Below are positions 21,791 to 39,512 of a DNA stretch of 64,000 nt, one piece after another (the stretch's first letter is position 1; each line of letters starts with the position of its first letter). Under the pieces are notes generated by a model. It was not told the origin of the DNA. It searched no databases and saw only the letters and a program-made list of their open reading frames with translations. The position numbers and the translations under genes are program-made. This DNA comes from an uncultured Acidobacteriota bacterium (GTDB lineage: Bacteria; Acidobacteriota; UBA6911). The DNA lies in assembly GCA_963809485.1 (NCBI GenBank), contig CAWEJX010000007.1:32001-96000 (forward strand), read 5' to 3'.

Positions 21791-22504
21791 ATGCGTTTGA
21801 TGATCAGTGTTGTGTCGGGGGCGGAAGCGCGCGAAGCCCTCTCGGGAGGCGCCGAGATCCTGGACGTCAAGAATCCCGCAGAAGGCTCGCTGGGCGCCCA
21901 ATCCCCCCGGATTATTCGCGAGATCAGGGATCTATGCCGCGGGAAAGCAGATCTCAGCGCGGCGATCGGCGACATGCCCAATCTGCCCGGCACGGCAGCA
22001 CTTGCAGCCCTGGGGGCCGCAGCATGCGGTGCCGATTATGTTAAGGTCGGCCTGTTTGGGCCGCGCAACGAAACGGAAGCCCTCACGATGCTCGGCGAAG
22101 TGAAGCTGGCCGTGGCGGAGCTGCCGGTATCGGTCATCGCCGCAGCGTACGCCGACTTCGGCCGCGCCGGCACCCTGGATCCGGAATGCCTGCCGCGCCT
22201 GGCTGCGAAGGCGGGCATCCGAGGGTGTCTGCTGGATACGGCCATCAAAGACGGACACACGCTACTGGATTTTCTTGCGCCGGAAACGCTGCGCCGCCTG
22301 GCGGATCAAGCCCATGAAGCCGGCCTGCTGTTCGCGCTGGCCGGAGCTCTGCGCGAACAGGATCTTTCCCTGGCCTGTGAATTGGGGGCGGACATAGCGG
22401 GGTTGCGTACCGCCGCATGCCGGGATAATCAGCGCGACGGAATCCTCGATGCGCACCGCGTTCGGCGGCTGCACCAGGCCATTCGCGGGCGGGCAGCTAC
22501 TTAA
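21791..22504 (+). CDS. mfnB: (5-formylfuran-3-yl)methyl phosphate synthase (orf22)
   Basis: GAEILDVKNPAEGSLGA, SAAIGD, DYVKVGL, LDTAIKDG, ALAGAL, GLRTAAC. Confidence 0.9.
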   Translation: MRLMISVVSGAEAREALSGGAEILDVKNPAEGSLGAQSPRIIREIRDLCRGKADLSAAIGDMPNLPGTAALAALGAAACGADYVKVGLFGPRNETEALTMLGEVKLAVAELPVSVIAAAYADFGRAGTLDPECLPRLAAKAGIRGCLLDTAIKDGHTLLDFLAPETLRRLADQAHEAGLLFALAGALREQDLSLACELGADIAGLRTAACRDNQRDGILDAHRVRRLHQAIRGRAAT

Positions 22505-22610
22505 CCACAATCCTTAACGCGAATTTTCCCTCAACATTTCCATGAGCAGCTCGTATTTGAGCCTGTCTGCTTGCGCAACCGGGCGCAGGTTTGGAGCAAT
22601 AATGGGTATC

Positions 22611-22645
22611 CTCCGGCAGAGCCGGTAGATCTCCTAACGCATTAG
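22611..22645 (-). repeat. Degenerate end hairpin of the IS200-like element
   Basis: CTCCGGCAGAGCCGGTAG...GCATTA. Confidence 0.4.
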
Positions 22646-22698
22646 CGTTCACCGGCGTCTGTTTCAGCGCATGTCGGCGTCGCCTGGTCTTTGAGCAG

Positions 22699-23403
22699 TC
22701 AGACTGTGTGAGCCTCCAGAGAAGCTGGGGGAATCGCTGATGTATTTATGCAGGTACCGGTTGTCCGGCCCGTATCCATCAGTTCAACCAACCGTTCGGG
22801 ATGCAAACCGCTGACCACCCATGTTTCGAGCGGAGTGCGGGCCAGGAAACGGGACAGCTGCCGGTCCACTCCCCCGTCAATCCTTGCCAGTTGATCCACG
22901 GTCAATTCCGCAATCAGCTCATCCGGGTGACCTGATGAATTTTTGTCCTTCAAAATTCCATCGACATCCTTGAGCAAAACAAGCCGCCGGCAGCCGGTCG
23001 CATACGCCACCCACGCGGCAATCGTGTCGGAGGTGACCTCCCAGGAATGCGGAAGCGGGTCGGCATGAATGATCTCCGCAGAAGGCAGCAGGATCGACGG
23101 ACTGCCGGACTCGGCAATCCGTCGGGCTTCGGCCAGATTCTTCACCCTCGAGCTGCCTGGGATCAGCTGACTCAAAACATATCCGTACTGGTCCATGGCA
23201 AGCAATGCCATGCAATGAGCGGTGCTTTCAGAGAGAGTGTACCGGGCGTAAATCTTCCGGACCAGGTCGGCGAATTCGCCTCCGCCCGGCACGACCAGCA
23301 GCGGACGGCGCTGGCCCAGGCGCGATATTTCCAGGCACAGGGCGGCCAGCCCATTGCCGCGGCTCAAACTGCCTCCAATTTTTAAAATCGCGTCCAGGCT
23401 CAT
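22699..23403 (-). CDS. mfnE: Amino-acid-kinase-family protein (orf21/MfnE-like)
   Basis: KIGGSL, VPGGGEFAD, AHCMALLAMDQYG, PHSWEVTSDTIA, LLKDVDG; ATGA overlap with the upstream gene. Confidence 0.75.
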   Translation of the reverse strand: MSLDAILKIGGSLSRGNGLAALCLEISRLGQRRPLLVVPGGGEFADLVRKIYARYTLSESTAHCMALLAMDQYGYVLSQLIPGSSRVKNLAEARRIAESGSPSILLPSAEIIHADPLPHSWEVTSDTIAAWVAYATGCRRLVLLKDVDGILKDKNSSGHPDELIAELTVDQLARIDGGVDRQLSRFLARTPLETWVVSGLHPERLVELMDTGRTTGTCINTSAIPPASLEAHTV

Positions 23404-24450
23404 AATGCTTCTGCTTTCATATGCCCGGCCAGCAGGTATGCCGCTGCAAGACAGGGAGCAACCGACAACTCCTCCGCTCCCCAATTACCCGCCGGATGCC
23501 GGATTTCAAGCCCAAGGCCGGCCGCAGCAGCTCTGGCAAGAAACGCCCCCGAACCCAGCGCCACCACGGGATGATGGCGCAATCCCGGCAGCCGGCCGAT
23601 GACCTGGCTCAAGCCCTCCTGAATCTGAACCACCTGCCGGGCGTGAATATATCTGGCCAATTCGTCGATCTCAGTTTCCGAAAGCATTTCCGTGTCAGCA
23701 CATACTAGGCGCGCAAGGCGTCTGCGGGATGAGTCAAGGGAAGGCGGTTTCCCATCGGGTGTCGGGCAGGTATAGTCCTTCGTGAGCAAATGACCCAGTA
23801 TCAGGTTCACATCCCCGCTGATCGCAAAGTATTCAGAGGATACACGGCAGAAGCTGCCTGCGACCGGAACAGAGTGAACGATCGCCGCCAGGTTTGTGCG
23901 TAAAGCGCCCGTATAGACAAGCTCGCCCGACGACAGGCGCTCCAGGTCCGTCCGTCCGATGACTTTCACCTGGCCGTCCAGGACAGGCAGTATGTCGGTG
24001 GTGGTGCTGCCCACGTCCACAATCAGGCAATCGGGGAATCGAATTCCGATCCATTGAGCGGACGCCAGCCAGTTCGATGCCGCAAAATCCAGCGGGCGGG
24101 TTCCGCGCTTCGTCCAGGGAGACGAATTCACCGGAGAGGCTCAGCGCATAGCAAGCAATCCCGGGAGAGCAGGTTTCCGCGCAATCCAGCACGAAAAGCA
24201 CTCCCTCGCGCTTTGTGGCAAATATGTCCGACAACTCGGCTGTCATGGTTACGGCAGCCGCTCGAGGCGGAGCACCTGCGGATATTTCAGTGAAGATCCC
24301 GCGCATCGCCTCAGCAAGCCTTTCCTTTTCACGCCAGATCTCGAGCGGCTGCACGGCGGTCCGCATCAGGTCCGGCTGACCCCGCTCCAGCCCTAAAAAT
24401 GCGGCTTTGACATTAGCCGCCCCGATATCCCAACCAACATAGCCGATCAT
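23400..24450 (-). CDS. mfnF: Hydantoinase/oxoprolinase-like H4MPT-linked protein (orf9/MfnF-like), split by a +1 frameshift near 24101
   Basis: GWDIGAANVK, AVTMTAELSD in one frame; AASNWLAS, DVGSTTTDI, ELVYTGALRT, SEYFA, RLARLVCAD in the other. Confidence 0.8.
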
Positions 24451-24465
24451 TGCAGTCCGCCGCCA

Positions 24466-25539
24466 TTATTTGTTCGCTGATAAATCCCAGGAAGCTGGAT
24501 CGTCCTTTTTTATCACAGCCCGGCCCACAAGCGGAACGCGATCGGGCAGGCTTCCTTGCATGCACGAGTCCCATATTGCGCGGGCCAGATTGATCCCCGC
24601 AACCCGGCGAAGCCCGATGTATGAAGTCGTAAGGCGCGGATTGATCTCAATCAGCCAGGCACCTCTGTCTTTCAGCACAAGGTCAACGCCGGCATATCCC
24701 TTCATGCCCGGGATCAGTCTTGCGGCCGAACAGGCCAGCTCCAGGGCATACTCGTCCGCGGTATGATTAAGGGGCACTTCGCTCCCCAGGTACCGGAACA
24801 CGGCTCCGTTTTCGATCAGCTGGCGGTTCAGGCTCAAAGGCAGGCAGCGGTCCCCGGCAATCAACATAGACACGCTGGCATGGATCCCGCTCATCATGGA
24901 TTGTAGTAGAATCTGCCTGCGGCGTGTCACCCGGCGGATCAGCGCCAGGGCAGCAGGCATGTCTGAAAAGGAGTCAATCCGGCAGACGCCCTCGCAGCCG
25001 ACGCCGTCCAATGGCTTTATTACCAGGGGCAAACACATTTGCTCCGCTATGCGGCGGGCGGAGGCAAAGCTGGCGGCATGGCTTTCAGGTGCCGGCAACT
25101 CTGCGTCGCGGAAAATCCTGGCGCAGGACCCCTTATCTCCCGCCACGGCGACCGCCGCGGAACTGGAACCCAGCACAGAAATTCCAACCCTTTCCGCATG
25201 CGCCGTAAGCTTTTTCAGGATGCCGTTTGTTTCCGGAGCTATAATAATTACGGCATCGCAGCGCTGGAGCAGGGAGAGATAGACGGTTTCGTAATCGCCG
25301 GGGGAAACCCCAACCACCTCGTCAGCCGGCAGAGTCGCCCGGTTCAGGTTTGGGATTTGTTCCTCGAAACGAGGATCGAGGACACTGATTGTGCGCACTG
25401 CTCCCCAACGGCTAAAATCCGTCAGGACGGCCCAGAGCATGCCCAGCGCTTCGGAGGCCAGCCCGGGGGTCAAGCTCCCTTCCGGACAGCCTCCTCCGGT
25501 GAAGAATTCATAAACCAGGACCCTTGCAGGAGCAGTCAT
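24466..25539 (-). CDS. mfnD: ATP-grasp tyramine-glutamate ligase-like protein (MfnD-like)
   Basis: VLVYEFFTGGG, IIAPETNG, KPLDGVGCEG, PLSLNRQ, GYAGVDL, IEINPRLTTSYIGL. Confidence 0.8.
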   Translation of the reverse strand: MTAPARVLVYEFFTGGGCPEGSLTPGLASEALGMLWAVLTDFSRWGAVRTISVLDPRFEEQIPNLNRATLPADEVVGVSPGDYETVYLSLLQRCDAVIIIAPETNGILKKLTAHAERVGISVLGSSSAAVAVAGDKGSCARIFRDAELPAPESHAASFASARRIAEQMCLPLVIKPLDGVGCEGVCRIDSFSDMPAALALIRRVTRRRQILLQSMMSGIHASVSMLIAGDRCLPLSLNRQLIENGAVFRYLGSEVPLNHTADEYALELACSAARLIPGMKGYAGVDLVLKDRGAWLIEINPRLTTSYIGLRRVAGINLARAIWDSCMQGSLPDRVPLVGRAVIKKDDPASWDLSANK

Positions 25540-26287
25540 GCGTCTTATTCCCGTCATCGATTTGCTGGATGGCCAGGCTGTGCACGCCGTTATAGGCAAG
25601 CGAGAGCATTACAGGCCCGTGAAGAGTGTGCTATGCGATACACCCGATCCTTTTGAAGTCGCTACGGCTTTCCGCGACCGTCTGGGATTGAACGAGATCT
25701 ACATCGCCGACCTGGATGCCATTCAGGGCGCCCGACAGGTCAATCATCGCGAAATGATTGCAGCTCTTGCCGGCGAAGAAGACCTTAATATTATCCTGGA
25801 TGCGGGAGTTTCAGATGTGGAAAATACAAGGACCTGGCTCGATCTTGGCGTCCGCAAAGTTGTGATCGGGGCCGAAACACTTCGCACCTGGGATGCGCTG
25901 CAGGATATTCCCGCAAAAGTCGACAGAGACCGCCTGATCTTCAGCCTGGATTCCCATGCCGGCAAGATCCTGTCTCAATCCCCGGCACTGGCCGCACTGT
26001 CTCCCATGAAAGCGCTCGAGCATTTACAGGCTGCGGGCTGGCAGGAGGTGCTTCTGCTGGACCTCAGGCTTGTGGGAAGCGGGGAAGGTGTGGATCGAAA
26101 GCTGGCATCGGAAGCACGCAGGAATTTCCCGGATCTGAGCCTCCTGGTCGGGGGAGGGTTAGCCCGGCCCGAGGAACTGGCCGAGCTGGAAGCCATGGGA
26201 GTAGCGGGGGTTCTCGCGGCGACCGCTCTTCACTATGGGACGATTACGGCGCAACACTTGGCCGCTCTGGTCCGGAATCCCTCCTGA
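25538..26287 (+). CDS. HisA/HisF-related TIM-barrel protein (orf17 of H4MPT clusters)
   Basis: IPVIDLLDGQAVHA..GKREHYRP, YIADLDAI, LLDLRLVGSGEG, GGG; AGGAG RBS inside mfnD. Confidence 0.85.
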   Translation: MRLIPVIDLLDGQAVHAVIGKREHYRPVKSVLCDTPDPFEVATAFRDRLGLNEIYIADLDAIQGARQVNHREMIAALAGEEDLNIILDAGVSDVENTRTWLDLGVRKVVIGAETLRTWDALQDIPAKVDRDRLIFSLDSHAGKILSQSPALAALSPMKALEHLQAAGWQEVLLLDLRLVGSGEGVDRKLASEARRNFPDLSLLVGGGLARPEELAELEAMGVAGVLAATALHYGTITAQHLAALVRNPS

Positions 26288-26358: not shown

Positions 26359-26871
26359 TTATTTGTACGCAGCAAAAGGATGCGCTACTTCGCCCTTCTT
26401 TTTCAGGATTTCAGCGACCTTCGGCTCTCCGGCCACCGCCCGCTGAATAGCAAGTTTGGTCGCTTCGTAGTTGTATTTCTGGATTTTGGCGTCATCCTTC
26501 GCTTCCCAATGGATGAACACGCCTACGAGGATAAACACATTCTCCGCCTCTGCTTTGGTGATCGTGCCTTCCTCGACGCAATCGGCAACCGCCATGGCCA
26601 CCGCCCGCTGCGCCGGGCCGAACATCTGAACCGCCTGAGTGGCGTTTTTGATGGTGACTTTGTTGAACATCACGGTGTGAGGCTTGCACACCAGGTTCGG
26701 TGCAATCACTGCCAGCAGAGCCGTGAAACCATCCTTGTTGTTGGTGAGGGTATTGCAGAACGCCGTCTCGGCAGCGCTGCCGCGCGGCCCCATCAACAGG
26801 TCGATATGAGCGACTTCATTCCCCTCGCCGACCAGGGCTTCTCCTACCATCACCTGAGTTACTTTTGCCAT
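26359..26871 (-). CDS. fae: Formaldehyde-activating enzyme
   Basis: [53 protein letters not shown]; AGGAGG RBS. Confidence 0.96.
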
Positions 26872-26964: not shown

Positions 26965-26993
26965 TCTATATATCGATCGGCATTTTTTGTCAA
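26965..26993 (-). promoter_or_regulatory. Putative sigma70 internal promoter for fae
   Basis: TTGACA-N17-TATAGA on the minus strand; imperfect direct repeat ATAGTTCT(C)TTGG x2 downstream at 26919-26945. Confidence 0.55.
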
Positions 26994-27847
26994 CACGAAA
27001 CCCGCCCTTCAAACAATGCGAGGAAGATAGCCGCGGCAGTCAGATCAGCGGCAGTCCCGGGATTCAGTTCGTGGGCCGGATCGCGCAGTCCCCGGTCCAT
27101 TTCCGCCAGTTCCGCCCGACCCCCGGGAGTGAAGACGCCGCCCCGCGCCAGAACTTCTCCGGCCCAGAGGGAAACCCGCCGCGCTTCCTCAATGCCCTTT
27201 TTGCGCGCGATGAGGGTATCCGGAACCCGGCTGAGAACGGTCAGGAAGGCTTGCACAACCGCAGCGGAAAAACCAGCTCCGCGGGATGAGGCTTCTTTCA
27301 GGGCCGGAAGGCCGATTTCAAATGTGATTGCATAGCCGGTGACATATTCCCGGGCTACCGCATCGCGCTCCCGGGCCAGAGACATGGCCTGCAACAAGGT
27401 AACCGACGGTTCTTCTGCGATGTCTGCTTGCGGGACATGGCCCAGACCCGCAGGCTGCGCAAGCCTGATGGCGGCGTATGCAAGCCGGGCATCTTCCACG
27501 GTAAGCGAATCCAGGACAGCGCCCAGGTTCTGCCGGAGATCCTGCACGCAGTCTGCCGATGCCATGCAGGCCTTGACGAGCGGAACCAGCAACAGGACCA
27601 TGCCCAGGTTCGTGTTGGATCGCACACTCCTGCGCGTATCTGCAACGGCCTGAAGGACTGTGTGCCCGACCCCCATCGGGCCCGCATTCTCGAGCGCCGG
27701 CCCGATGGCAATGGCGCTGACAAGAAAATCTTCCAGCGTCGTGTCCGGAAAATCATGCGAGCGGTTTACGTTGCCGGGCTTGGGCGCACAGGCCTCCAAA
27801 ATGCAGGCCATTTGCGCAAGCCGGGAGATCCGTTTCTCAGTATTCAT
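26990..27847 (-). CDS. CitG-like triphosphoribosyl-dephospho-CoA synthase family protein (orf7)
   Basis: LEACAPKPGNV, NTNLGMVLL, PDTLIARK, NPGTAADL. Confidence 0.88.
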   Translation of the reverse strand: MNTEKRISRLAQMACILEACAPKPGNVNRSHDFPDTTLEDFLVSAIAIGPALENAGPMGVGHTVLQAVADTRRSVRSNTNLGMVLLLVPLVKACMASADCVQDLRQNLGAVLDSLTVEDARLAYAAIRLAQPAGLGHVPQADIAEEPSVTLLQAMSLARERDAVAREYVTGYAITFEIGLPALKEASSRGAGFSAAVVQAFLTVLSRVPDTLIARKKGIEEARRVSLWAGEVLARGGVFTPGGRAELAEMDRGLRDPAHELNPGTAADLTAAAIFLALFEGRVSC

Positions 27848-28245
27848 AATTACATTGGTAAACCCCCGGCTCTGCCATGGGACTCAAAGAGTTTGACAGC
27901 TCCGTATTTTGAAACGCTGAGAAACGCTGATAAAAGCGCTGACAAACGCCGATTTGTTCGGCGAGGGTCGGCGAGCAAAAGCCGATGAGGCGCTTCCGAT
28001 GGAGTTTTCTGCGGCGGCACTGTGGCAAACGCCCGGTTTCTCATCCCCTTCATCTCCTTGCCGCACGGCGCTTGCCACAGTGCCGCCGCAGAAAACTGTC
28101 CAGCGCGGAGCGCTGGCCCCTGCGGGGATCGGAAGCGCCTCATCGGCTTTTGCCCGCGTAAGTCAGCGTTCAAGACCGGCGTAACTAGTCCAACCGCTTT
28201 GAGCGGTTCAAATCTTGCCTACGGCTTTGCCGGAGGTACCTGACT
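27847..28245 (+). mobile_element. IS200-like non-autonomous element, full-length ~400-bp copy
   Basis: TAATTACATTGGTAAACCCCCGGCTCTGCC...AACCGCTTTGAGCGGTT...GGCTTTGCCGGAGGTACCTGACT; reverse complement of 48061-48463. Confidence 0.85.
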
Positions 28246-29126
28246 CATGGGCAAGTGGTCCGGCGCAACACGAAATCGACGATCCGCCCGGCGATATCCT
28301 GGCCCGTGGTTTTTTGCAGCCCGCGCCAGCCGGGGATGCTGTTGATTTCCACGACGTAGGTCCGGCCGTCTTCAGCCCTCATCAGATCCACCCCGGCGTA
28401 ATCCAAATCAAGGCAGCGCGCCGCCTCAAGCGCCATCCCCTTCATCTCGGCGCCAAGCTCTAACGCTTCCACCTTTGCGCCCTGCGAGCAATTGGTCTTC
28501 CATCCTGTCCCGCGGCGGACCATGGCGGCCACGATCTCGCCTCCCACAATAAAAGCTCGCACATCCTCCTGGAAGTGCGGCAGGTACTCCTGGAGATAAT
28601 AGATGAACCGGTTCAGTTCCCACGCCCGCAGCACGCGATAGGCGGTCTCCTCGTCCGATATCCTCACCATTCCTTTTCCCTCGGATCCGAACAGAGGTTT
28701 CAGGATGACATCTCCCATTTCATGGAAAGCGGAAAGAGCCGATTCGAAATCCTCCGTCACGACAGTGCGCGGAGTCGGAATGCCCGCATCGGCCAGAAGG
28801 AAGGAGGTGTAGTATTTGTCCACCGTGCGTTCGATTGATGAAGCGGAATTAACCACCCGTACGCCGAGGTTTTCCAGACGATGCAACGCGTCCATGCGGA
28901 AGATGATCTGTTCGAGGGAGCCCGTCGGGATGGTGCGGACAAGAATAGTTCGGCAGTCCTCCAGGCATTCTCCGCGGGCACCGAGAGCCGGCCGCCCGCC
29001 GATGCGTCCGGCCAGCCGCGCGATCGGGAAAAAGGCCGCCTCGCACCCCCGGCTGCGAATGGCGCCCTCGAGAGCCTGCACGTGATAGCCCCGTTGGGAT
29101 GAAACAATTCCTATTTTAGCCGGCAT
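28245..29126 (-). CDS. RimK-family alpha-L-glutamate ligase (orf5/MyfA-like)
   Basis: GSLEQIIFRMDALH, VDKYYTS, KPLFGSEGKG, WKTN, YAGVDL, EINSIPGW. Confidence 0.9.
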   Translation of the reverse strand: MPAKIGIVSSQRGYHVQALEGAIRSRGCEAAFFPIARLAGRIGGRPALGARGECLEDCRTILVRTIPTGSLEQIIFRMDALHRLENLGVRVVNSASSIERTVDKYYTSFLLADAGIPTPRTVVTEDFESALSAFHEMGDVILKPLFGSEGKGMVRISDEETAYRVLRAWELNRFIYYLQEYLPHFQEDVRAFIVGGEIVAAMVRRGTGWKTNCSQGAKVEALELGAEMKGMALEAARCLDLDYAGVDLMRAEDGRTYVVEINSIPGWRGLQKTTGQDIAGRIVDFVLRRTTCP

Positions 29127-29129
29127 GGC

Positions 29130-30092
29130 TCAACCTTCCACCAGGGAAGCCCTGAGCAAAGAAGGATTCATATGGCCGGCACGGAAAATGCGGCCGGATT
29201 TCAGGTTGTTGATCTCAACCCGGGCAGGGCTGAAAAGCATGGGGTCGATCTGAAAGAAATCTCCGTTATACCGCTTAAAGAGTTCATGGAAGGGCGTGCC
29301 ATAGTCCCGGGACCCTGTCGAAGGAACTCTATCGACCAAGGCTGCCAGCTCCTCATCATCGGCAAGAACAGTGAAATAGACCTGACTGCCATAGAGGATG
29401 GCGTCATTGGTCCGCCCGATGGCACGAAGGTCGTCTGAGGCTACCGGCGCCAAAGGGCACAGGCCGAATGCCGCTGTTACCTTCCGGACATCAAAACCCA
29501 GCTCCACAAGCTTGTGCAAACCCGTCTCCAAGGCTCGTGCAGCGATCTGTATGGAACCCACCAGGGAGGCCGTCGGAGCAATCAACAGGATTGTTTGCTC
29601 CGGCTTCACTCCGCACTTCTCCGCCACGAAGGCAGCCACATTCTCGCCCGGCAGCTCGCGCCCTTCCATTGTCAATACCGCCACCTCGGCCCGGTCCCGA
29701 TATCCCAGCTTCTGATAGATATCCTCGCCGGCGTAAAGCGCGCGCGCCGGGCCCGATCCGATGGCGAAGTAACCGCCTTGTTTGATGGCCCACCCTGCGT
29801 ACTGCGAAGCCATGCAGGCGATGTGTGGAAGACTTGCCGTAACCGCCACGGCCGGGAGACGGAAGCCGTCATCCCCGATTCCATAAGACTGCTGCGTGAA
29901 GGCAACCTGGCCCAACCCTCCCATGCTTACACGGGCGAACAGGCGACCGGCCTCCATACTGCCGGGCGCATCGATCCCGGCATCAAGCACCGTGGAACCG
30001 TTCTTCAGGCGCCTCGAGCTGAGGCCGAGCGCTTCGCAATCATCAAGCATTTGTTGTACAATCGCGGCGGCCCGCTTGTTAACGCTGATCAT
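29130..30092 (-). CDS. mch: Methenyl-H4MPT cyclohydrolase
   Basis: ACMASQYAGW, GSGPARA, APTASLVGSIQIAARALE, HK, GRTNDAILY, IDPMLFSPA. Confidence 0.96.
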   Translation of the reverse strand: MISVNKRAAAIVQQMLDDCEALGLSSRRLKNGSTVLDAGIDAPGSMEAGRLFARVSMGGLGQVAFTQQSYGIGDDGFRLPAVAVTASLPHIACMASQYAGWAIKQGGYFAIGSGPARALYAGEDIYQKLGYRDRAEVAVLTMEGRELPGENVAAFVAEKCGVKPEQTILLIAPTASLVGSIQIAARALETGLHKLVELGFDVRKVTAAFGLCPLAPVASDDLRAIGRTNDAILYGSQVYFTVLADDEELAALVDRVPSTGSRDYGTPFHELFKRYNGDFFQIDPMLFSPARVEINNLKSGRIFRAGHMNPSLLRASLVEG

Positions 30093-30888: not shown

Positions 30889-31784
30889 CGCGAAGTTCCC
30901 TTTTCCAGAACCTTGTGAAGATGGAATTTATATTTACCCAGATTCCCCCCATAGTTTCCCGCCGCGATCCGGAGGATGCCGTCAATGCAGGCTGCCTGGA
31001 TTCCCACGCGCGTCGCCTGCTCGATCGCCGGGACGTCCAAACCGTCTATCACTATCTCCATCACCGAATTCACCTCTTCCGGAAGAGCCGAAGAAACCAG
31101 GCTGCGCAGGCTGGGGCAATAGGCGTCATTGGTTGAGGCTTTCAGAAATTTATAGCGCGAGCCGACTTTGCTTCCGCTGCGCACAATTCCTCCCGGGAAA
31201 GGCAGTATGACCCCCGGGACACGCTGCATCGCCTCCGCCGCGAGTTCCGCTGCACGCAGAGTAGCGGGAAGATCGCTGCCCAGGATCAGGATATTGCCGC
31301 CGCCGATCGCGCGTTGAACTCCAAATTTTTCTTCAACCAGGAACTCCCCCTCCATAACCGGGATGCGCCAGTACCGGCGGCCGCCAATGACTTTGCTGAT
31401 CTGGAAACTGTCCCCGAAAAAGCGCAGTTGCCCCCCGACGGAGACTTGCTCTTCCGCCTTCAGCCCGTTGAAGCAGGCTGTGGTCGGACATGTCAACACG
31501 CACTGCCCGATGCGGCTGACAAGGTGGCTCGCCAGCGCTTCTTTGGAGGGCGCGAACAGCAAGGCACTCACGCCGGGCCTGCCGTCGGGCGTCTGCTCCA
31601 ACTCCGACTCGATGCCGGCTTCGCATCCACAGCCGATGACGGAGGTGGCAAAACCCGTCATCCGGACTGCGGCCTCGCGTGCCCATTTTCCATTTATGGC
31701 TGTGATCAGGATACGTGCGCCCCACATGCCGAAGGCTTCGGCGAACGTATCCTCGATTTCCACTCCGTTTATGTGCTTTCCCAT
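30885..31784 (-). CDS. ftr: Formylmethanofuran:H4MPT formyltransferase (Ftr/FhcD)
   Basis: IEDTFAEAF, GFATSVIGCGCEAGIE, TPDGRPG, RIGQCVLTCPTT, SGSKVGS, GNYGG. Confidence 0.96.
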   Translation of the reverse strand: MGKHINGVEIEDTFAEAFGMWGARILITAINGKWAREAAVRMTGFATSVIGCGCEAGIESELEQTPDGRPGVSALLFAPSKEALASHLVSRIGQCVLTCPTTACFNGLKAEEQVSVGGQLRFFGDSFQISKVIGGRRYWRIPVMEGEFLVEEKFGVQRAIGGGNILILGSDLPATLRAAELAAEAMQRVPGVILPFPGGIVRSGSKVGSRYKFLKASTNDAYCPSLRSLVSSALPEEVNSVMEIVIDGLDVPAIEQATRVGIQAACIDGILRIAAGNYGGNLGKYKFHLHKVLEKGTSR

Positions 31785-31943
31785 ATCCTTCCATCCCGAC
31801 AACTAACGGCTAACGCAGAGGCGGCCGGAAGGCCGTCGCAGTTGAAACGCCGGAGGATTTTCCCGGGCGGCCTTCGTACCGCCCGTAAGATAACCGATCA
31901 CGAGCTTTGGGGCAGTTCCCGGAGGAAATCCGTCTACCCATTA

Positions 31944-33569
31944 TTATGCCGTCACCGGGACTTGCCGCGGCCTCGGCAGGTAGTGCTCCGTTTGCACCGG
32001 ATAGTTTTCAAATTCAATCGTGTAGTAATTCCTGAAATGCTCCCGGATATCCTTCTCGATATCCGGATCATACCCGGGCGAAACGAAGAGAGTCCTGCCG
32101 TATGTCTCCTGGCGAATGTGGCCTTCCTCCACCAGGACCAGCCCTGCCTTGATGACATACCGGGGATTGGCGAACATCTGCTCCTTGTCGTCGTTATTGT
32201 CATAAATGGTGATATCGGCATCGGCGCCAACTCCCAGGTGCCCTTTGTGCGAAAGTCCAAGCAGGCGCGCAGGGCCCGCCCTGGTTATTATGGCGATTTC
32301 CGAGAGCGAATATTCCCGGTCGTGATCGGGCAGGGTGGTTTTGGCAATCGCCTTGGGATTCACCTTCTTCAAAGTCTCGCGCCGGTACTCGCGGTCCATG
32401 AGCAGGCGGATGATCTGCGGATAGGCGACAAAGGAGGCGCCGTTGGGATGATCCGTGGACAGGGCGATACGCCAGGGATCGCGCACCAGCAGGAACCACT
32501 CCAGGCCGATCGCCCATTGCGTGGTGTGCACGTGGTTTTTGTCTTTGTATTCAACCGGCACTATGCCGCAGCCTTCTTCGTTCTCCACGTCCACATTTAC
32601 CCACTTCCGCCCGCTGATCTGATGCAGCATGTAAGCCAGCGGGCTGTCGCCGGTCATTGAAGTCGTGTCGCCGAACATGACCTGGCCGATATCAACGGTA
32701 AGGTTCGGGTGCGTGTTCACATATTCCGCCAGTTCCGGGACCCGTGAGGTGAACAGCCCGCCCGGACGCCCTCCATAGCTGTGGAACTGGACGTGCGCCA
32801 GGTGGCCGCGCCGGCCGTCCAGCGCTTGCATGGTATCCATTGTGGTTTTCCAGTTGCCGGCGACTCCCAGATTATTGCAATGGATGTGCGCGCAGTGCGG
32901 CAGGTGCAGATCCATGCTCGCTTCAGTCAGCGATTGGATAATCTGGCGCGGCGTTACACCAAACCCGCTCACCTCATCGTCGATAGTGTGGGCGTTTCCC
33001 CCGGATTTCCACAGCTCGACCCCGCCCGGGTTCACCAGCTTTACCGCAAATCCGCGCGTCGCCTGCAGCAGCCAGGCGATGTAATGGCGGACCTTTTCGC
33101 GCTCCCCGGCGGCGATCTGCCGCATGATGAATTCGTTGTTCCCCATCAGCACCATGAAACCCTTGTCAATGACGGGGGTATCCATGAACTCTTCATGGGC
33201 ATGGCGCGCCACCATGGGTGGGACCGCCGCATCCATGGCTGTGGTATAGCCCATTGCGGCATAGCGATAGCCCGTAGCAAAGGTGGATGGCACAGTCCTG
33301 CCGGCACCCGAGCGGGTGACCGGTGTGCGCGACAGGGGCGCCAGGCGGTTGTCTTCCGGCCGCATTTTTCGCGCAATATTGACCTTGGGCCCCGCTATAT
33401 GGCAGTGCATGTCCACCCCGCCGGGCATAACTACCATCCCTGCCGCATCGATGGTTCTTCCGCCGGCATCGGAAGCCGCGATTTGCCCATCCTTGACGAA
33501 GATATTGCGGACCTCGCCGTTGATGCCGTTGATCGGGTCGTAGACTTCGCCATTTATGATTTTCAGCAT
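31944..33569 (-). CDS. fhcA: Formylmethanofuran dehydrogenase / Fhc subunit A (amidohydrolase)
   Basis: DMHCHIAG, KLVNPGG, HIHCNNLG, HLAHVQF, QWAIGLE, TDHPNG, TRAGPA; metal ligands appear intact. Confidence 0.95.
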   Translation of the reverse strand: MLKIINGEVYDPINGINGEVRNIFVKDGQIAASDAGGRTIDAAGMVVMPGGVDMHCHIAGPKVNIARKMRPEDNRLAPLSRTPVTRSGAGRTVPSTFATGYRYAAMGYTTAMDAAVPPMVARHAHEEFMDTPVIDKGFMVLMGNNEFIMRQIAAGEREKVRHYIAWLLQATRGFAVKLVNPGGVELWKSGGNAHTIDDEVSGFGVTPRQIIQSLTEASMDLHLPHCAHIHCNNLGVAGNWKTTMDTMQALDGRRGHLAHVQFHSYGGRPGGLFTSRVPELAEYVNTHPNLTVDIGQVMFGDTTSMTGDSPLAYMLHQISGRKWVNVDVENEEGCGIVPVEYKDKNHVHTTQWAIGLEWFLLVRDPWRIALSTDHPNGASFVAYPQIIRLLMDREYRRETLKKVNPKAIAKTTLPDHDREYSLSEIAIITRAGPARLLGLSHKGHLGVGADADITIYDNNDDKEQMFANPRYVIKAGLVLVEEGHIRQETYGRTLFVSPGYDPDIEKDIREHFRNYYTIEFENYPVQTEHYLPRPRQVPVTA

Positions 33570-33594: not shown

Positions 33595-34776
33595 TCAGAA
33601 TTTACCACGAGGAGGGCTGGCCAAACTCTCATTTTTGGGCAAGATTTCTGTCCTCAGCTTTCCGGCCTGGGCGATCATTGCACCAAGCATTTCGTCATAT
33701 GTGGGACAAGCGGCCAGGATCGTGCAGATGGGGCCGCCCCTGGGCAGTATTTCGCCGGCTGCCGGGACATCCCGTATTGCCCTTGCCGTCCATTTCCGGG
33801 TATCGGGAGCGATGGCGTCCGATTCGGCAAACAGGATCGCCTTCCCGAAGAATTCTCCGCCCGCTGCCCGGGCCGCAAGGTCGAAATCGGGAAGCTTGCA
33901 TTCCAGCACCGCCTGAAGGTGAAGGCGAAAAACAGGCAGGCCATAGGCCTGCTCCACCAATTCCATGGAGGCCGAATAGCGCGGGTTGACCTCGGTCAGC
34001 CATACCTGACCGCAGCTCAGGATGAAATCGATTCCATTAACGCCGATCAGACCATATTCCCGGGTAAGGAATCCGGCCAAGCGTCTCACCTGATCGAGAA
34101 TCGCAACGCCCGTCTCGGGATGGCAGAATTCAGGAAGAGGCAAGACATTTCCGCAGTAGCGGAATCCACGGGCACCAAACTCCGGAGTGCCTACCAGCTG
34201 CGCCGCAATCCCAAGGACGACACATTCCTGGCCATTGGCCACGAAAGAGGCGGAACAGGGCTTCCCGGGAACATATTTCTGGAGGTAAAAAGGATCACGG
34301 GGGGCCTTATTTCGTTTCAGGAAAGCTATTCCATGGCCTCCCCCGCTCAACGGCGGTCTTATAAGCCAGCAGCGGGCAGGGTCAGCTTCGCTCATCCGGC
34401 CGGCGAAGAGCGTTTGGGGGACCCGGAATCCGGCTGCTTCAAGTTTTTCGTACAACGTCGCCCAGTGGCGAACGGACTCGATCGTCTCGGGAGAATTCCC
34501 GATCACGCGGCATCTGGCAGCGAACCTGCGGATGATTTCGGGGTGATTTTCCAGGTTGGAGGTATAGGCGACACTGTCAAAATTGAGGCGCCCGCTCTTC
34601 TCATAAAGCGACGCTGCGCTATACGGGACATGGAAATCGTAGCGCAGCGAGCGGGATTCGGTCAAGGATTTCAGATCCTGATCCCCGTAGGCGTCCAGCG
34701 CGATCACCGAATAGCCGCTGCGCACTGCAGACTCAGCCATGGCGCGAACGCTTATCCCAACGACCAGGATCTTCAT
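33595..34776 (-). CDS. ATP-grasp protein (orfY/MyfB-like)
   Basis: GISVRAMAESA..DAYGDQD, GGGHG, FRYCGN, GVNGIDF, EVNPRYSAS, DVP..PICT. Confidence 0.85.
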   Translation of the reverse strand: MKILVVGISVRAMAESAVRSGYSVIALDAYGDQDLKSLTESRSLRYDFHVPYSAASLYEKSGRLNFDSVAYTSNLENHPEIIRRFAARCRVIGNSPETIESVRHWATLYEKLEAAGFRVPQTLFAGRMSEADPARCWLIRPPLSGGGHGIAFLKRNKAPRDPFYLQKYVPGKPCSASFVANGQECVVLGIAAQLVGTPEFGARGFRYCGNVLPLPEFCHPETGVAILDQVRRLAGFLTREYGLIGVNGIDFILSCGQVWLTEVNPRYSASMELVEQAYGLPVFRLHLQAVLECKLPDFDLAARAAGGEFFGKAILFAESDAIAPDTRKWTARAIRDVPAAGEILPRGGPICTILAACPTYDEMLGAMIAQAGKLRTEILPKNESLASPPRGKF

Positions 34777-34905: not shown

Positions 34906-35820
34906 TCAGACAAGCTGTCTGGCAATGCCGTAGACGCCTTCGGTGTCCAAAACCAGGTCGTTTCTTTCGAACAACCGGGCGATGCATGCCTTGTGGACTT
35001 TCATCTTTGGATTGCCGATGGCGAGTGCCCCCAGCGCCCGCTTGCCGCCGTATTCGGCAAAGTCATCCCCGGGTTTGATACCCTCGATGGCCAGCGGCTC
35101 CGTCAGGTTGAAATCCAGCAGCCATTTCACGTTGACCCGTTTCGACCATGAATCCGTCGGGATCATGCGCAATCCGGCCGGGCCCGCCGCCACCACGATC
35201 TCCGCCTGATCCAGCATCGCATCCAGCCCGTCAAGGTCGGCCACATCTTTGATAGAAAGCCCTCCCCCGGCATTTGCGCAGGAACTGACACGGAAGGCTT
35301 CGGCGGCTTTGTGCCCGCTTTCCAGGGTTCGCCGCGCCAGCTCGGAATTGTAGCGCGTCCCCAGCAATTGGGGCGGGATGGAAGTGAGGTGCACGCGGCA
35401 ACCTTCGCCCGCTAGCAGAACTGCAGCCCGCAATCCCACCGGGCCGGGCCCGATCACCAGGGCCACCTTCCCTCGCAGCTCCGCCTGACGGGCCAGTTTG
35501 GCAACGGCAGTGGACGCCGTGGTGTTGCAGCCGTTGGAATCGAGCATGAGCGAGATTTTGAACGGACCGAAAAAGGTCTTGCGGGCTTCGGCCAGCAGTT
35601 GTTCGCCTGCATCCACATCCGAGCCGCCGATCCACACTGCCAGGTCCTTGAGGTCCGGGATGCCGCGGGTGAAAAACGCGCTCAGGATCAGTCCACGCAC
35701 ATCGGAAGGCGCAATCCCGCCGTAGCTCTGCACGATATCCGCTCCGGCATCGTAAGCGACAATGCAGTCAAAAGTGCTGGGGAATTTGTCGTTGTCCAGT
35801 TGAATCAGAATTTTTTTCAT
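34906..35820 (-). CDS. mtd: NAD(P)-dependent methylene-H4MPT dehydrogenase, MtdA/MtdC-like
   Basis: KILIQLD..PSTFD.IVAYDAGAD, FTRG, FFGPF..MLDSNGCNTTA, GPVG, GALAIGNPKMKVHKAC. Confidence 0.9.
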   Translation of the reverse strand: MKKILIQLDNDKFPSTFDCIVAYDAGADIVQSYGGIAPSDVRGLILSAFFTRGIPDLKDLAVWIGGSDVDAGEQLLAEARKTFFGPFKISLMLDSNGCNTTASTAVAKLARQAELRGKVALVIGPGPVGLRAAVLLAGEGCRVHLTSIPPQLLGTRYNSELARRTLESGHKAAEAFRVSSCANAGGGLSIKDVADLDGLDAMLDQAEIVVAAGPAGLRMIPTDSWSKRVNVKWLLDFNLTEPLAIEGIKPGDDFAEYGGKRALGALAIGNPKMKVHKACIARLFERNDLVLDTEGVYGIARQLV

Positions 35821-35844
35821 GCCGCATCCTTTGGCTGCAGGAAT

Positions 35845-35990
35845 CAAGAAGCCTGAAGCCTGAAGTTAGAAGCCGGAAGAGAAGATTGATTATCCCGATG
35901 CATCACCAGGTAGCGGAAGCGTGACAGCCGTGACCGTCAACCGGAAGGCTATTCCGGCTGCCGATTTCTGACTCCGGGCTCTTTGCTTCT
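35845..35990. repeat. Degenerate heptamer (GAAGCCT-type) repeat with loose inverted partner in the mptG-mtd spacer
   Basis: CAAGAAGCCTGAAGCCTGAAGTTAGAAGCCGGAAG ... TTTCTGACTCCGGGCTCTTTGCTTCT. Confidence 0.4.
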
Positions 35991-36053
35991 ATGATGAACC
36001 AGATTCAGACCAGGCCCCGAATAACGGAATGCGGCCGCAAGTTCGTGAGGCAC

Positions 36054-37055
36054 TCAGGCATGCTTTCGCACCTGCGCTCCCCGGTTTTGGGGCTGTACGC
36101 AGAAGATCTCGCCTCCACCCAGGCTATCCAGTAAAACCTTTACTTCCTTCACCAGTCGCAAGGCTTTCATTTTCCCGTCCACGAGGCCGTAAACTGCCGG
36201 GCCCCAGGAGCTTTGCCCGGCTCCCAAGGCTCCCCGATCAATCATGAAACCGATCATTTTTTCGGAAATGGAATTGGAAAAACGTCCGCCTTGAACGGAT
36301 GCGAAAAAGTCTCCGACCATGCGCTGGATGTCCGTCAATGCCTGCCCAAAACTAACGGCATCCTTCTCCACCAGTGCCGGCAGCATCTTCATCAGCAGCA
36401 GACGGCTGCTTTTCTCGGCCAGCCGAGCCGGAGCCGGAGGCAATTGCTGAAAAGCGATATTTTCCTTCTCCCCGCTGAAGCCTTTGTCTGCCTTCGGGAT
36501 AACTGTTACGAAATACCAGCTCTTTGGCACCGGGTGCCGGAACAAAACAGGAGGGATGCTGTTTTTTTCCATCCGCCCGGTAAGTCCATCGATTTCGGCG
36601 GGCGCAGGCAGGCCGGAGAGCAGACGGTGTCCGCCATCCAAAACGAAGCCCCCGCGATGGAAGGTTGCGATGCCGATTCCCGAACGCATGCCTCTTCCCA
36701 CTGCCAGCGCGATTTCCCGGGTGCTGAGCCGCAAGCCGGCCAAGGCAGCGAGAGCCGTGCCCACTGCCATGCCTATCTGGGTTCCCGATCCCAGCCCGAC
36801 ATGAGAAGGAATACCAGTCTCCAGATTCAGGCGCGCTCCGGAAGGAGCGCCATAGTGCCGGATAAAACGCCGGGCGTATTCGGCAACCCGCTCGGATTCC
36901 TGACCCTCGGCCAGAAGCCCGTCCGCACTGTCGGCTTTCAGTATCAGATGCGGCTGGGTTATGGCCAATCCGATGCTGCCGTATAGCCGGCCCTGCTCCC
37001 CATTGTTGTCCAGCAGGCCCAGATGGAGGCGTGCGCAGGTTCTGACCTCAATCAT
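36054..37055 (-). CDS. mptG: Beta-ribofuranosylaminobenzene 5'-phosphate synthase (GHMP fold)
   Basis: ARLHLGLLD, HVGLGSGTQ, GRG.RSGIG, GGFVLDGG, GQSSWGP. Confidence 0.93.
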   Translation of the reverse strand: MIEVRTCARLHLGLLDNNGEQGRLYGSIGLAITQPHLILKADSADGLLAEGQESERVAEYARRFIRHYGAPSGARLNLETGIPSHVGLGSGTQIGMAVGTALAALAGLRLSTREIALAVGRGMRSGIGIATFHRGGFVLDGGHRLLSGLPAPAEIDGLTGRMEKNSIPPVLFRHPVPKSWYFVTVIPKADKGFSGEKENIAFQQLPPAPARLAEKSSRLLLMKMLPALVEKDAVSFGQALTDIQRMVGDFFASVQGGRFSNSISEKMIGFMIDRGALGAGQSSWGPAVYGLVDGKMKALRLVKEVKVLLDSLGGGEIFCVQPQNRGAQVRKHA

Positions 37056-37626
37056 CCCTTCCCCTTTTTTGCAACGTAATCGCAAATTTTGCGACGTAAT
37101 CGTGAACCAGCCGGAAGGCCTCCTTTTCATCCTCACCGCCGGTCTTCTCAACTATTTCACTATAATATACCAGCCTTTCAGCCATAATCCTCCGATCGAT
37201 CTGCTCCAGGCGGGTAGCCAAAATGGTTGCCTCGATCACGGCACTGCCTGCCCGGCAAAATCCCAAAAAATCCTTTTTCCGGCCTCTGTGCAGCACCTGG
37301 CACCGCAGCTCTGCCCGCTCTTCGGTGCCTTCAGAGGAGACCAGCGCCATCTCCAGCCAGGAGCAGGCTCCCTCGAATACCGCACCGGGAATAACAAGGG
37401 CCGGGAAATGGCCGGGGACTTCTTTGTACAATCCGCACCGGACATACGCCAGAGCATTGTCTGTCAGACTGGCCACGCCGTATCCGCTTCTGAGCAAATT
37501 CCTGCACGTGCGTGTATTTCGAAATGGGCGCACGATGACAAAATCCTCTCCCCACACAAGGCCCATCGGCGCGAAATTCGGGCTGCCTGCTTCATCGAGG
37601 GTCGAAAAGATAGTCTCAACAATCAT
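37048..37626 (-). CDS. DUF447-family protein (orf19)
   Basis: IVETIFST, NFAPMG, PF..TRT..NL, RA..AVIEATILATR. Confidence 0.85.
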   Translation of the reverse strand: MIVETIFSTLDEAGSPNFAPMGLVWGEDFVIVRPFRNTRTCRNLLRSGYGVASLTDNALAYVRCGLYKEVPGHFPALVIPGAVFEGACSWLEMALVSSEGTEERAELRCQVLHRGRKKDFLGFCRAGSAVIEATILATRLEQIDRRIMAERLVYYSEIVEKTGGEDEKEAFRLVHDYVAKFAITLQKRGRDD

Positions 37627-37686
37627 AGGATATGCTGTTGCTGGCAGCGGCAGCATCCTGCCGCGGGATTGCGCAAGAAATTAGGG

Positions 37687-39006
37687 CTAGGGAACCAGAT
37701 AGCCCCAGCGCAGGCCTTCTTCCTGCGTATATTTTTTCCCGAGCTGCACTGCCAGAAGCGCTTTCTGCAATTCCTTGCCCAGATAAAACGCATACGACGG
37801 ATCCTCAATCTTCATCCTCTTGAAGATCGCCCGGATGTCCCTATCCTTGAAAAAGAGCCGGTTGTTGAACACGTAGATAGTATCCCGGTCGGTGAAAATG
37901 CGATAGTTCCCGTCGCGCACTTTCGCCTGCATTTTGCGCAGTTCGCTCTCACTGAAAGCATCGAATGGGGGATCCTTCACCGTAATCAGCCTGTCATCCA
38001 GGTGTTTGGGCAACAGCTTGTTTTCAAAAGCATAAAACATGAGCCTCCGGGCGATATCGAGCTCCTGAACCGCTCCGCGCGCCCAGCTGGCCACCTCGGT
38101 GGTCAATACATAATCTATCTCCAGTTCCGTGGCGATGGCAGCCAGCACGGCCGTGACTCCGGTGCTGTCGGCCGCCGTAAGCTCCGTGACATTGCCCAAT
38201 CCCATGAGCATCTCGGCCCGCGGATATTTGCGGCGCACAGCGATGAAATTTCCTATCGATTCGGTGAAGCCGAAACTGATCGGATTCAACACGGGATCGA
38301 TGATGTAAGGAACGTTCCATGCTTCAAGCCGGGCGATATTTTCCTCCAGGGAATCCATGCGCTTGCCGAAATCCGGGATGACCACAACCTTGCAGCGCAC
38401 GCGGCGCGCAAGCTCCAGGTTTTGGGAATTGACGCTAAGCAGAAAGTCCGCTCCCGCCCGGTCTGCTTTCAGGACATCATCGGCGTTGAAAGAATCCACG
38501 CTTACCAGGAAGCCCCTCTCCTTTAAAGCGCGAACGACAGTTTCTATTTCAGAGAATCCTCCCTCCAGGGGGCAACCCAAATCTATGACATCCGCCCCGC
38601 CGGCTTTGAAATAGGAGGCCCGCTCCAGTATCCCGTCCAGGCTGAGCTGGTGGGCATCGACGATTTCCGCCATGATTTTCGCGCGGTGAGCGCCATACCC
38701 GGCAGGCTGATGAGTTCTGCCCAAGAAGGACGGGATATCCTTCAGGCTTTTGGGGCCGCGGATCACTTCAATCTTAAGCTTGGCCGCGATGAGCTCCGTG
38801 TCCCCTTTACACAGTCCAGGAATCACAACGGTATCGCAGCCCATGGAATCTTCCAGGTGCCTGGCCGCAAAACGTGTATCCATCAGGGCAGCGACGGAAA
38901 TGGGCAGGATGGCGAGCCTGTATTCGATGCCGGGAGTCATTCCGTCAAGAGTGTCGCCAAGCGAAGGGGCAGCCAGCTTGCCCGTTACAAACAGGTAGCG
39001 AGGCAT
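37687..39006 (-). CDS. Dihydropteroate synthase-like H4MPT biosynthesis protein (orf20)
   Basis: LFVTGKLA, ISVAALM, GADVIDLGC, MGLGNVTELTAADSTG, AFYLGKELQKA..LGKKYTQE. Confidence 0.9.
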   Translation of the reverse strand: MPRYLFVTGKLAAPSLGDTLDGMTPGIEYRLAILPISVAALMDTRFAARHLEDSMGCDTVVIPGLCKGDTELIAAKLKIEVIRGPKSLKDIPSFLGRTHQPAGYGAHRAKIMAEIVDAHQLSLDGILERASYFKAGGADVIDLGCPLEGGFSEIETVVRALKERGFLVSVDSFNADDVLKADRAGADFLLSVNSQNLELARRVRCKVVVIPDFGKRMDSLEENIARLEAWNVPYIIDPVLNPISFGFTESIGNFIAVRRKYPRAEMLMGLGNVTELTAADSTGVTAVLAAIATELEIDYVLTTEVASWARGAVQELDIARRLMFYAFENKLLPKHLDDRLITVKDPPFDAFSESELRKMQAKVRDGNYRIFTDRDTIYVFNNRLFFKDRDIRAIFKRMKIEDPSYAFYLGKELQKALLAVQLGKKYTQEEGLRWGYLVP

Positions 39007-39512
39007 CGCTCCAACTCCTCCCGGCTGCCGGCGACATGAACTCCGGCGAAGGTTTTGAGTTTTTCCGAATTTTCGAGATCGATCGGCCGTGGAAATATCC
39101 TGACCGTTGCTCCGTGCGTGTCCAACGAATCCACTTCGGTGACCAAATCCGTGGGGTAAACGATAACCGGCACCCGGGATTTGCCGGCTTGCGCAAACAG
39201 ATTGGTTACCAGGGTGTCGGAGATGCCGTGAACAAATTTCGCCACGGAGTTCGAAGTGGCCGGAGCAATTACCAGCACCGAGTACATGCCGCTGTAAAAG
39301 CGCGCCACCAGAGGCGAGCTGGCCTTCCCCTCGCGATAGGTCCGGATATTGGGAATATCGATGCGCACGCTGAGTTTGTATTTTTGCATCACTTCATCGC
39401 CGGCCCGGGAAAGGAATACATCCACTTTCGGTTGTTTCAGGAGCACCTGGACACAATCCTCGAGGCCGTGCCCCGCACCTGTAATTGCCCACGCAATATG
39501 TTTTTCAGCCAT
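38985..39512 (-). CDS. AfpA/DmrB-like flavoprotein (putative dihydromethanopterin reductase)
   Basis: AWAITGAGH, APATSNSVAKFVHGISDTLVTNLFAQAGK, PRPIDLEN. Confidence 0.85.
   Translation of the reverse strand: MAEKHIAWAITGAGHGLEDCVQVLLKQPKVDVFLSRAGDEVMQKYKLSVRIDIPNIRTYREGKASSPLVARFYSGMYSVLVIAPATSNSVAKFVHGISDTLVTNLFAQAGKSRVPVIVYPTDLVTEVDSLDTHGATVRIFPRPIDLENSEKLKTFAGVHVAGSREELERCLATCL

Follow-up and report, generated by a model that had tools for sequence, protein, structure and literature searches.

Genes for a probable selenocysteine-containing formyl-methanofuran dehydrogenase lie at two loci in the genome of an uncultured Acidobacteriota bacterium

A 64,000-nucleotide stretch of DNA from an uncultured Acidobacteriota bacterium (GTDB lineage UBA6911; assembly GCA_963809485.1, contig CAWEJX010000007.1), referred to here as the window, carries an island of genes for one-carbon metabolism linked to methanofuran and tetrahydromethanopterin (H4MPT). 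A first-pass annotation, made from the sequence of the window, recognized fae, mtd, mch, ftr, fhcA and fhcC in this island together with about 12 cofactor-biosynthesis genes, and pointed out that the genes for FwdD and for subunit B of the formyl-methanofuran enzyme were missing. The locus therefore raises the question of which enzyme ends the pathway. The first-pass annotation offered two answers, a minimal FhcA-Ftr-FhcC formyltransferase/hydrolase that releases formate, or a B subunit supplied from elsewhere. We found fwdB and fwdD on another contig of the same genome, and it is highly probable that the island serves bacterial H4MPT/methanofuran-linked formaldehyde oxidation with, as its last enzyme, a redox-type formyl-methanofuran dehydrogenase (Fwd/Fmd type) encoded at two loci.

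The window corresponds to C7:32001-96000 of the source genome (G000), an assembly of 6.04 Mb in 21 contigs with 95.7% completeness and 7.3% estimated contamination. None of the 17 matches to TIGR03129 (FwdB/FhcB) in the genome fell within the window, and tblastn searches with FwdD and with the cysteine (Cys)-type FwdB of relatives gave no match on C7; the reported absence of both genes from the window was thus confirmed. In the whole genome, one TIGR03129 match exceeded the cut-off (328 bits). It scored 504 bits, was located at C20:176334-177587 (-) and contained one in-frame TGA. The genes at this locus, termed L009, are ordered fwdD, a small open reading frame (ORF) with an in-frame UGA, fwdB and fwdC. 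FwdD, encoded on the upstream side of fwdB (L009:10860-11207 (-)), matched PF01568 (Molydop_binding, E = 1e-10) and, below the cut-off, NF042908 (E = 1e-20), and the product of the gene directly downstream of fwdB was a second FwdC (TIGR03122, 274 bits). According to tblastn, the genome has a single copy each of fwdA, ftr and mch, all in the window, and two copies of fwdC; neither a second fwdD nor a Cys-type fwdB was detected in it. B is therefore supplied from elsewhere, and the proposal of a minimal B-less enzyme was overturned by the fwdB and fwdD on C20.

When TGA was read as selenocysteine (Sec, U), the C20 FwdB, with a predicted length of about 442 residues and Sec as residue 114, showed an N-terminal CTFCGCTCDD motif and SSL-U-HGP at the metal-ligand position. 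The U aligned with the X of chain 9sfi_Q and is followed by His, as in B subunits that bind Mo/W-bis(pyranopterin guanine dinucleotide). C9, C12, C14, C16 and C35 were invariant in all six aligned sequences; we take these conserved N-terminal cysteines to be the ligands of a [4Fe-4S] cluster, as in the solved archaeal enzyme. The best solved relatives were archaeal FwdB/FmdB chains (E = 2e-118 to 2e-95), including 9sfi_Q (2e-118), 8rja_B and 5t5i_B (2e-110), whereas FhcB of Methylorubrum extorquens (6s6y_B) matched at E = 5e-14 only. In Fhc, B is a scaffold without pterin cofactor and metal ligand; the C20 protein keeps both the Sec-His pair and the Fe-S motif. The genome thus encodes a B subunit with a metal ligand and an Fe-S motif, a separate FwdD, an amidohydrolase subunit A and a subunit C with GXGXG repeats. 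Since B is far closer to archaeal FwdB than to FhcB, the enzyme is most likely a redox dehydrogenase and not a hydrolase, namely one of the bacterial Sec-type Fwd enzymes rather than a minimal Fhc, and the label "Fhc" given to the island was dropped.

The two loci belong to one organism. C7 and C20 have GC contents of 0.562 and 0.556, respectively, and their tetranucleotide frequencies correlate at 0.996. At 1.36 Mb, C20 is larger than any other contig, and it is collinear with the record of a sister genome across the 17 kb of that record, with 81-90% identity.

The reading of the fwdB TGA as Sec was examined using 80 related loci, which were retrieved from public genomes with the FwdB alignment. 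The codon at this site was TGA in 79 of them and TGC in one, and the frame was conserved past it. A hairpin of 7 bp with an AGUU loop lies 18 nt after the UGA; in an alignment of 35 sequences, 95.5% of its cells were paired and the CAG-TTG codons within it never varied. The genome also contains tRNA-Sec, selA, selB and selD, in addition to moaA. Hence, a UGA kept in relatives, a downstream hairpin and the Sec machinery, as expected for a bacterial selenoprotein, were all found. An Rfam scan of the fwdB region with E up to 1 gave no selenocysteine insertion sequence family and one chance-level match to a small RNA. In a search of public sequencing runs with the fwdD-B-C stretch, no RNA dataset was listed and the best DNA datasets shared at most 0.21 of the sampled words. 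selD (C8:80982-81905 (+)) has an in-frame TGA of its own, indicating that it is the selenoprotein form of selenophosphate synthetase.

The small ORF between fwdD and fwdB consists of 68 codons (L009:10638-10844 (-), equal to C20:177637-177843), with its in-frame UGA at L009:10676-10674. It bears the conserved motif PRRIRGSxxGxxLG-U-[TA]F. The strict pattern occurred in 47 of 83 rows, always with TGA, and further rows visibly have the ORF but miss the pattern. A short hairpin follows the UGA, with compensatory changes in two of its four pairs. The ORF was absent from both Cys-type islands that were checked, and searches against Pfam and NCBIfam returned chance-level matches only. Its product may be a small selenoprotein subunit; alternatively, the ORF may act as a selenium-sensing leader for fwdB.

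The island itself extends over 21.7-39.5 kb of the window. Pfam and NCBIfam scans, with a whole-genome search for Fae, bore out fae, mtd, mch, ftr, fwdA (fhcA) and fwdC (fhcC); the cofactor-biosynthesis genes for methanofuran and H4MPT are also present, and we counted 11 of them, namely all genes listed below other than these six. The features are as follows (coordinates in the window, strand, assignment).

21728..22504, +, mfnB, (5-formylfuran-3-yl)methyl phosphate synthase of methanofuran biosynthesis (PF04476, 241 bits; NF002575, 234 bits, below cut-off)
22699..23484, -, mfnE-like kinase of the amino-acid kinase family (PF00696; NF040622 MfnE, E = 1e-38, below cut-off)
23400..24450, -, mfnF-like gene, TIGR03123 "H4MPT-linked C1 transfer pathway protein", in two frames with a frameshift near 24100 (TIGR03123 positions 106-326 in ORF 23400-24131 and 1-109 in ORF 23833-24450)
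24466..25599, -, MfnD-like ATP-grasp ligase (PF02655, PF18301; NF040722, E = 1e-31)
25538..26287, +, HisA/HisF-family protein of the TIGR00734 type (PF00977; TIGR00734, E = 3e-35)
26359..26871, -, fae, formaldehyde-activating enzyme (PF08714, 237 bits)
26990..27847, -, CitG-family protein resembling triphosphoribosyl-dephospho-CoA synthase (PF01874, 255 bits)
27848..28244, no strand, repeated element of about 400 bp resembling a miniature inverted-repeat transposable element, between the CitG-like gene and mptN (copies at 83-96% identity on C7)
28245..29126, -, mptN, H4MPT:alpha-L-glutamate ligase-like (NF040720, 281 bits; TIGR00768, 205 bits)
29130..30092, -, mch, methenyl-H4MPT cyclohydrolase (TIGR03120, 403 bits)
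30079..30888, -, fwdC/fhcC, island copy of subunit C (TIGR03122, 260 bits; 49% identical to the C20 copy)
30885..31802, -, ftr/fhcD, formylmethanofuran:H4MPT formyltransferase, sole genome copy (TIGR03119, 427 bits)
31944..33569, -, fwdA/fhcA, amidohydrolase subunit A, sole genome copy (TIGR03121, 758 bits)
33595..34776, -, orfY-type ATP-grasp protein, separated from fwdA by fwdD-fwdB in most relatives (PF02655)
34906..35847, -, mtd, NAD(P)-type methylene-H4MPT dehydrogenase of the Mtd family (PF09176 Mpt_N, 91 bits)
36054..37151, -, beta-ribofuranosylaminobenzene 5'-phosphate synthase of H4MPT biosynthesis (TIGR00144, 215 bits)
37687..39006, -, dihydropteroate-synthase-like protein of the TIGR00284 type (TIGR00284, E = 1e-57, below cut-off; PF20123)
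38985..39512, -, AfpA/MJ0208-like flavoprotein resembling dihydromethanopterin reductase (PF02441; TIGR02700 and TIGR02699, E = 1e-31, below cut-offs)

The stop codon of orfY lies at 33597-33595 and the likely ATG of fwdA at 33569, preceded by a GGAGGA box; the gap is 25 nt, in agreement with the spacing noted earlier. The best solved relatives of FwdA were the archaeal FwdA/FmdA chains 8rja_A and 5t5i_A, and the order fwdA, ftr, fwdC, in which ftr is clustered with the genes for A and C, is a trait of the Fhc type. The mfnF-like gene has one extra base compared with the related loci L017 and L015; the alignment with L017 shows 87% identity over 1090 nt and one gap, and the frameshift may reflect either an indel introduced in assembly or genuine loss of the gene's function. 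The repeated element at 27848-28244 has an internal inverted repeat and many further copies on C7. It is absent from the same site in the sister genome L017, where the CitG-like gene and mptN are 7 nt apart.

The two-locus arrangement was compared across the genus by searching each of its 30 species genomes for B and for A. Two layouts were distinguished. In 18 genomes, a TGA-free fwdB immediately preceded fwdA on one contig; in five (G000, G005 with two copies, G006, G013 and G041), a TGA-containing fwdB was on a different contig from fwdA, so that the two-locus layout occurs in 5 of the 23 pathway-bearing species. The remaining seven had neither gene; no genome had both types of B, and none had A without B or B without A. 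Among relatives with the first layout, the islands L014 and L015 read orfY, fwdD, fwdB, fwdA, ftr, fwdC, mch, showing the synteny that the first-pass annotation had suggested examining. Sequences of B from within the island were extracted from 14 of these 18 genomes; TSV-C-HGP was read in the alignment for two, L014 and L015, which are also the two Cys-type islands in which fwdD was seen. In the four Sec-type islands that were read, fwdA directly follows orfY with no fwdD-fwdB between them. The islands of G005 and G013 also lack fwdC, and A in these genomes can only use the distal C. selA was found in 28 of the 30 genomes, the two misses being the least complete assemblies (76% and 71%); the type of B does not, therefore, follow the capability for Sec.

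The origins of A and B were compared in quick FastTree trees of 96 B rows and 71 A rows, in which some of the named rows may duplicate DNA of our G-series genomes and were not counted as independent. The Sec-type FwdB of the source genome was 54-56% identical to the Cys-type FwdB of its genus and 65-76% identical to Sec-type FwdB of Planctomycetota, Vicinamibacteria, Rokubacteria and other metagenome-assembled genomes (MAGs). In the B tree, the 14 in-island Cys-type rows of the genus formed one clade (support 100), and a Sec clade of 82 rows contained the five Sec-type rows with the D-B-C layout along with two rows that carry a Chloroflexi label. In the A tree, the FwdA of the window lay inside the clade of the genus (18 rows, support 100), mixed with A of Cys-type genomes. 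The trees thus place FwdA as native to the genus, with the Sec-type FwdB in a distinct bacterial Sec clade that is widespread.

The usual order in this wider Sec clade is fwdD, fwdB, fwdA, fwdC. Among the 80 related loci, A was directly after B in 48, elsewhere in the retrieved stretch in 10, and not found within 2.5-8 kb downstream in 10; six loci end at the contig edge, and B followed by C without A was seen only in L023-L028. These results suggested that the genus acquired a Sec-type D-B-A-C module from another Fwd lineage; this module would have lost its own A and taken the place of the Cys-type D-B native to the island. On balance, we lean towards the view that this foreign Sec module (FwdD, the small UGA peptide gene, FwdB and FwdC) replaced the native Cys-type FwdD-FwdB and now cooperates with the FwdA and Ftr native to the genus, in which Sec machinery is near-universal. 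If true, this would be a natural subunit swap, and the hydrolase and redox halves of Fwd would be exchangeable between lineages whose A and B are about 50-55% identical. The A-less fwdD-B(Sec)-C operons of L025 and L027, labelled Caldilineaceae/Chloroflexi, were sister to the acidobacterial Sec-type rows, and their DNA match to the source genome was limited to the operon, which points to either transfer between phyla or mis-binned contigs.

For the completed enzyme, we propose the following route. Fae, Mtd, Mch and Ftr would convert formaldehyde to formyl-methanofuran, which the island-encoded FwdA would hydrolyse to formate. FwdB and FwdD would then oxidise formate to CO2 at a Mo/W-pterin centre with a Sec ligand, and the electrons would exit via the [4Fe-4S] cluster of FwdB to some acceptor. 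Archaeal FwdA reportedly interconverts formyl-methanofuran and formate, and FwdB with FwdD formate and CO2 at the pterin metal centre; by likeness to the solved archaeal enzyme, formate may pass between the two sites through a tunnel. As for direction, fae, an NAD(P)-type mtd, mch and ftr are present, mer was searched for and not found, and no pyrroloquinoline quinone (PQQ)-dependent methanol dehydrogenase matched above the cut-off. The pathway would thus likely run from formaldehyde to CO2, and the role in formaldehyde oxidation suggested by the first-pass annotation seems reasonable.

Several observations weigh against this proposal. The predicted assembly of the island A with D, B and C of the C20 locus draws on homology and gene counts. 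The ORFs flanking the island and the C20 locus included neither a ferredoxin subunit of the FwdF/FwdG type nor another redox partner, although no whole-genome search for FwdF/FwdG was made, and no electron-transfer neighbour was common to 83 clustered loci: beyond B, D, the A/C cluster, one 83-locus cluster of short ORFs (presumed opposite-strand overlaps) and Ftr (22 loci), no ORF cluster occurred in more than 17 loci. The hairpin behind the fwdB UGA folded no better than shuffled sequence (single-sequence fold, z = -0.08) and showed almost no covariation, so that its support lies in conservation. The mfnF-like gene is frameshifted, and methanofuran synthesis may be impaired if this is real and not an assembly error. 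The assembly also carries the contamination estimate given above. With regard to origin, the four Sec-type genomes present in the A tree stood at three places while Sec-type B formed one clade, a history that would need several transfers or losses, but the starred branches of the A tree are also compatible with a single origin.

Part of this evidence can be read differently. The two loci could encode two enzymes, with FwdA, Ftr and FwdC of the island forming a B-less formyltransferase/hydrolase that releases formate, and FwdD, FwdB(Sec) and FwdC of C20 forming a separate selenium-containing formate dehydrogenase. The loci are unlinked, the source genome and one sister genome keep two copies of C, one per locus, and formate is an intermediate in both the Fhc and the Fwd mechanism. 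Nevertheless, we regard this as unlikely: G005 and G013 have the distal C only, the distal operon descends from fwdD-B-A-C operons, as reflected in the frequent position of A directly after B in related loci, and A and B were never found apart in the genomes of the genus.

An even less probable account is that the pathway is decaying, the deletion of D-B and the frameshift in the mfnF-like gene being steps of gene loss and the distal operon being unrelated to the function of the island. It would fit that frameshift, the IS4 transposase and repeated element at or inside the island, and the seven genus genomes without fwdA and fwdB. Against it, the remaining island genes have open frames and full-length family matches, the layout recurs with intact genes in five species genomes, and a single-base indel is a frequent assembly error. 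Finally, the complex would truly be B-less if the C20 locus were mis-binned, or if the TGA were a true stop and fwdB a pseudogene. The 7.3% contamination and the two near-identical D-B-C loci labelled Chloroflexi speak for mis-binning. We consider either event very improbable, because C20 is the largest contig, agrees with C7 in composition and is collinear with the sister record, and because the layouts in the genus argue against mis-binning: a TGA-containing fwdB was on another contig than fwdA in all five genomes that have it, a second fwdB was found in none of the 18 others, and fwdD-fwdB was missing between orfY and fwdA in all four Sec-type islands read. A pseudogene is disfavoured by the conserved frame after the TGA and by the retention of TGA in all but one of the related loci. 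We therefore prefer a redox dehydrogenase assembled from both loci.

Outside the island, the window contains other genes that bear on energy metabolism. At 53069-61717 (+), 15-20 kb downstream of the island, a Rex-like regulator comes first in a series that continues with a NuoF-like/GltD-like flavoprotein, perhaps split (ORFs 54195-56675 and 56560-57468), then a [FeFe]-hydrogenase (57498-59213 (+)) and, at 59720-61717 (+), a histidine kinase joined to a hydrogenase-like domain. With its NuoF-like subunit, this set makes ferredoxin-linked metabolism plausible; a link to Fwd is speculation. The hydrogenase agrees with the probable anaerobic lifestyle assumed in the first-pass annotation, whereas a gene on C21 resembling haem-copper oxidase subunit I (CoxA), with 641 bits just under the cut-off, speaks against a strict anaerobe. 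Upstream of the island are a gene for an outer-membrane beta-barrel of the MtrB/PioB type (PF11854; 17927-19162 (+)), a kind used in extracellular electron transfer, and, directly before mfnB, one for a 766-residue protein with an N-terminal DruA (Druantia) domain and an IS4/Tn5-type transposase (19412-21712 (+)).

Sec-containing FwdB, bacterial FwdB and the pathway in Acidobacteria MAGs have already been published, and the two-locus layout of mixed origin is the only new, small detail. Our keyword search of the literature, which was not exhaustive, gave no description of an A-less D-B-C operon paired with a D-B-less island. The analysis removes a false lead, as the source genome has no B-less formyl-methanofuran enzyme, and adds a further case from Acidobacteriota of the soil/wetland type of an archaeal-style enzyme that should carry formaldehyde carbon to CO2 rather than release formate. 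No biochemical test of an archaeal-style Fwd in bacteria was found in the literature cited here. Related species that have either the Cys-type module inside the island or the Sec-type module at a distance could be compared directly, which bears on the question of selenium versus sulfur and on the modularity of the complex.

Among known systems, the archaeal W/Mo enzymes FwdABCD(FG) (5t5i, 8rja, 9sfi, 9sw6 and 7bkb) resemble the one proposed here in that genes for A, B, C and D are all present, FwdB carries the [4Fe-4S] motif and a Sec/Cys-His pair, and A and B find their best matches there. Unlike them, the source genome has no FwdF/FwdG genes at either of its two loci, ftr is placed between the genes for A and C, an arrangement shared with bacterial fhc clusters, and the presence of fae and an NAD(P)-type mtd without mer points to an oxidative role rather than to reduction of CO2. 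With FhcABCD of M. extorquens (6s6y) it shares the setting of bacterial H4MPT-linked formaldehyde oxidation and the clustering of ftr with the genes for A and C. It differs in the B subunit, which matches 6s6y_B at 5e-14 compared with 1e-110 and below for archaeal FwdB, keeps Sec-His and is accompanied by FwdD. FhcB is entered without pterin cofactor in Table 1 of Wells et al. 2023 (PMC10100899), and bacterial FwdB makes up 27% of FwdB homologues in that study. FwdB is also listed as an experimentally verified selenoprotein, and discussed for methanogens, in a 2026 selenoproteome review (PMC13188914).

The lineage is less unusual for this pathway than the first-pass annotation had supposed. 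In the accessible part of Yadav et al. 2021 (bioRxiv 10.1101/2021.04.09.439258), H4MPT-linked formaldehyde oxidation is reported for some, but not all, MAGs of the acidobacterial genus UBA6911, without upstream C1 oxidation genes, as is a [FeFe] hydrogenase. The pathway is treated there as ending in formate, unlike the route proposed here, and that text does not contain the word "formylmethanofuran". In a passage of Chistoserdova 2016 (PMC5020050), fwdD is said not to be present in Planctomycetes or Proteobacteria; this statement is superseded by Kim et al. 2016, Wells et al. 2023 and the related loci retrieved here. Among the close described counterparts are Rhodopirellula sp. P2 and a Lake Washington fosmid, for which Kim et al. 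2016 (PMC4807772) describe a bacterial Sec-containing subunit B preceded by fwdD; in P2, the Sec-containing fmdB lies in an fmdD-B-A-C operon, and Acidobacteria appear in the tree legend. Many Planctomycetota loci share a broad Sec clade with the B of the source genome. Kim et al. note organisms that carry a Sec and a Cys form side by side, whereas none of the genomes of the present genus has both, and the Sec operon described here (D, small ORF, B, C) differs from the P2/fosmid system in lacking A, which would be supplied by the H4MPT island.

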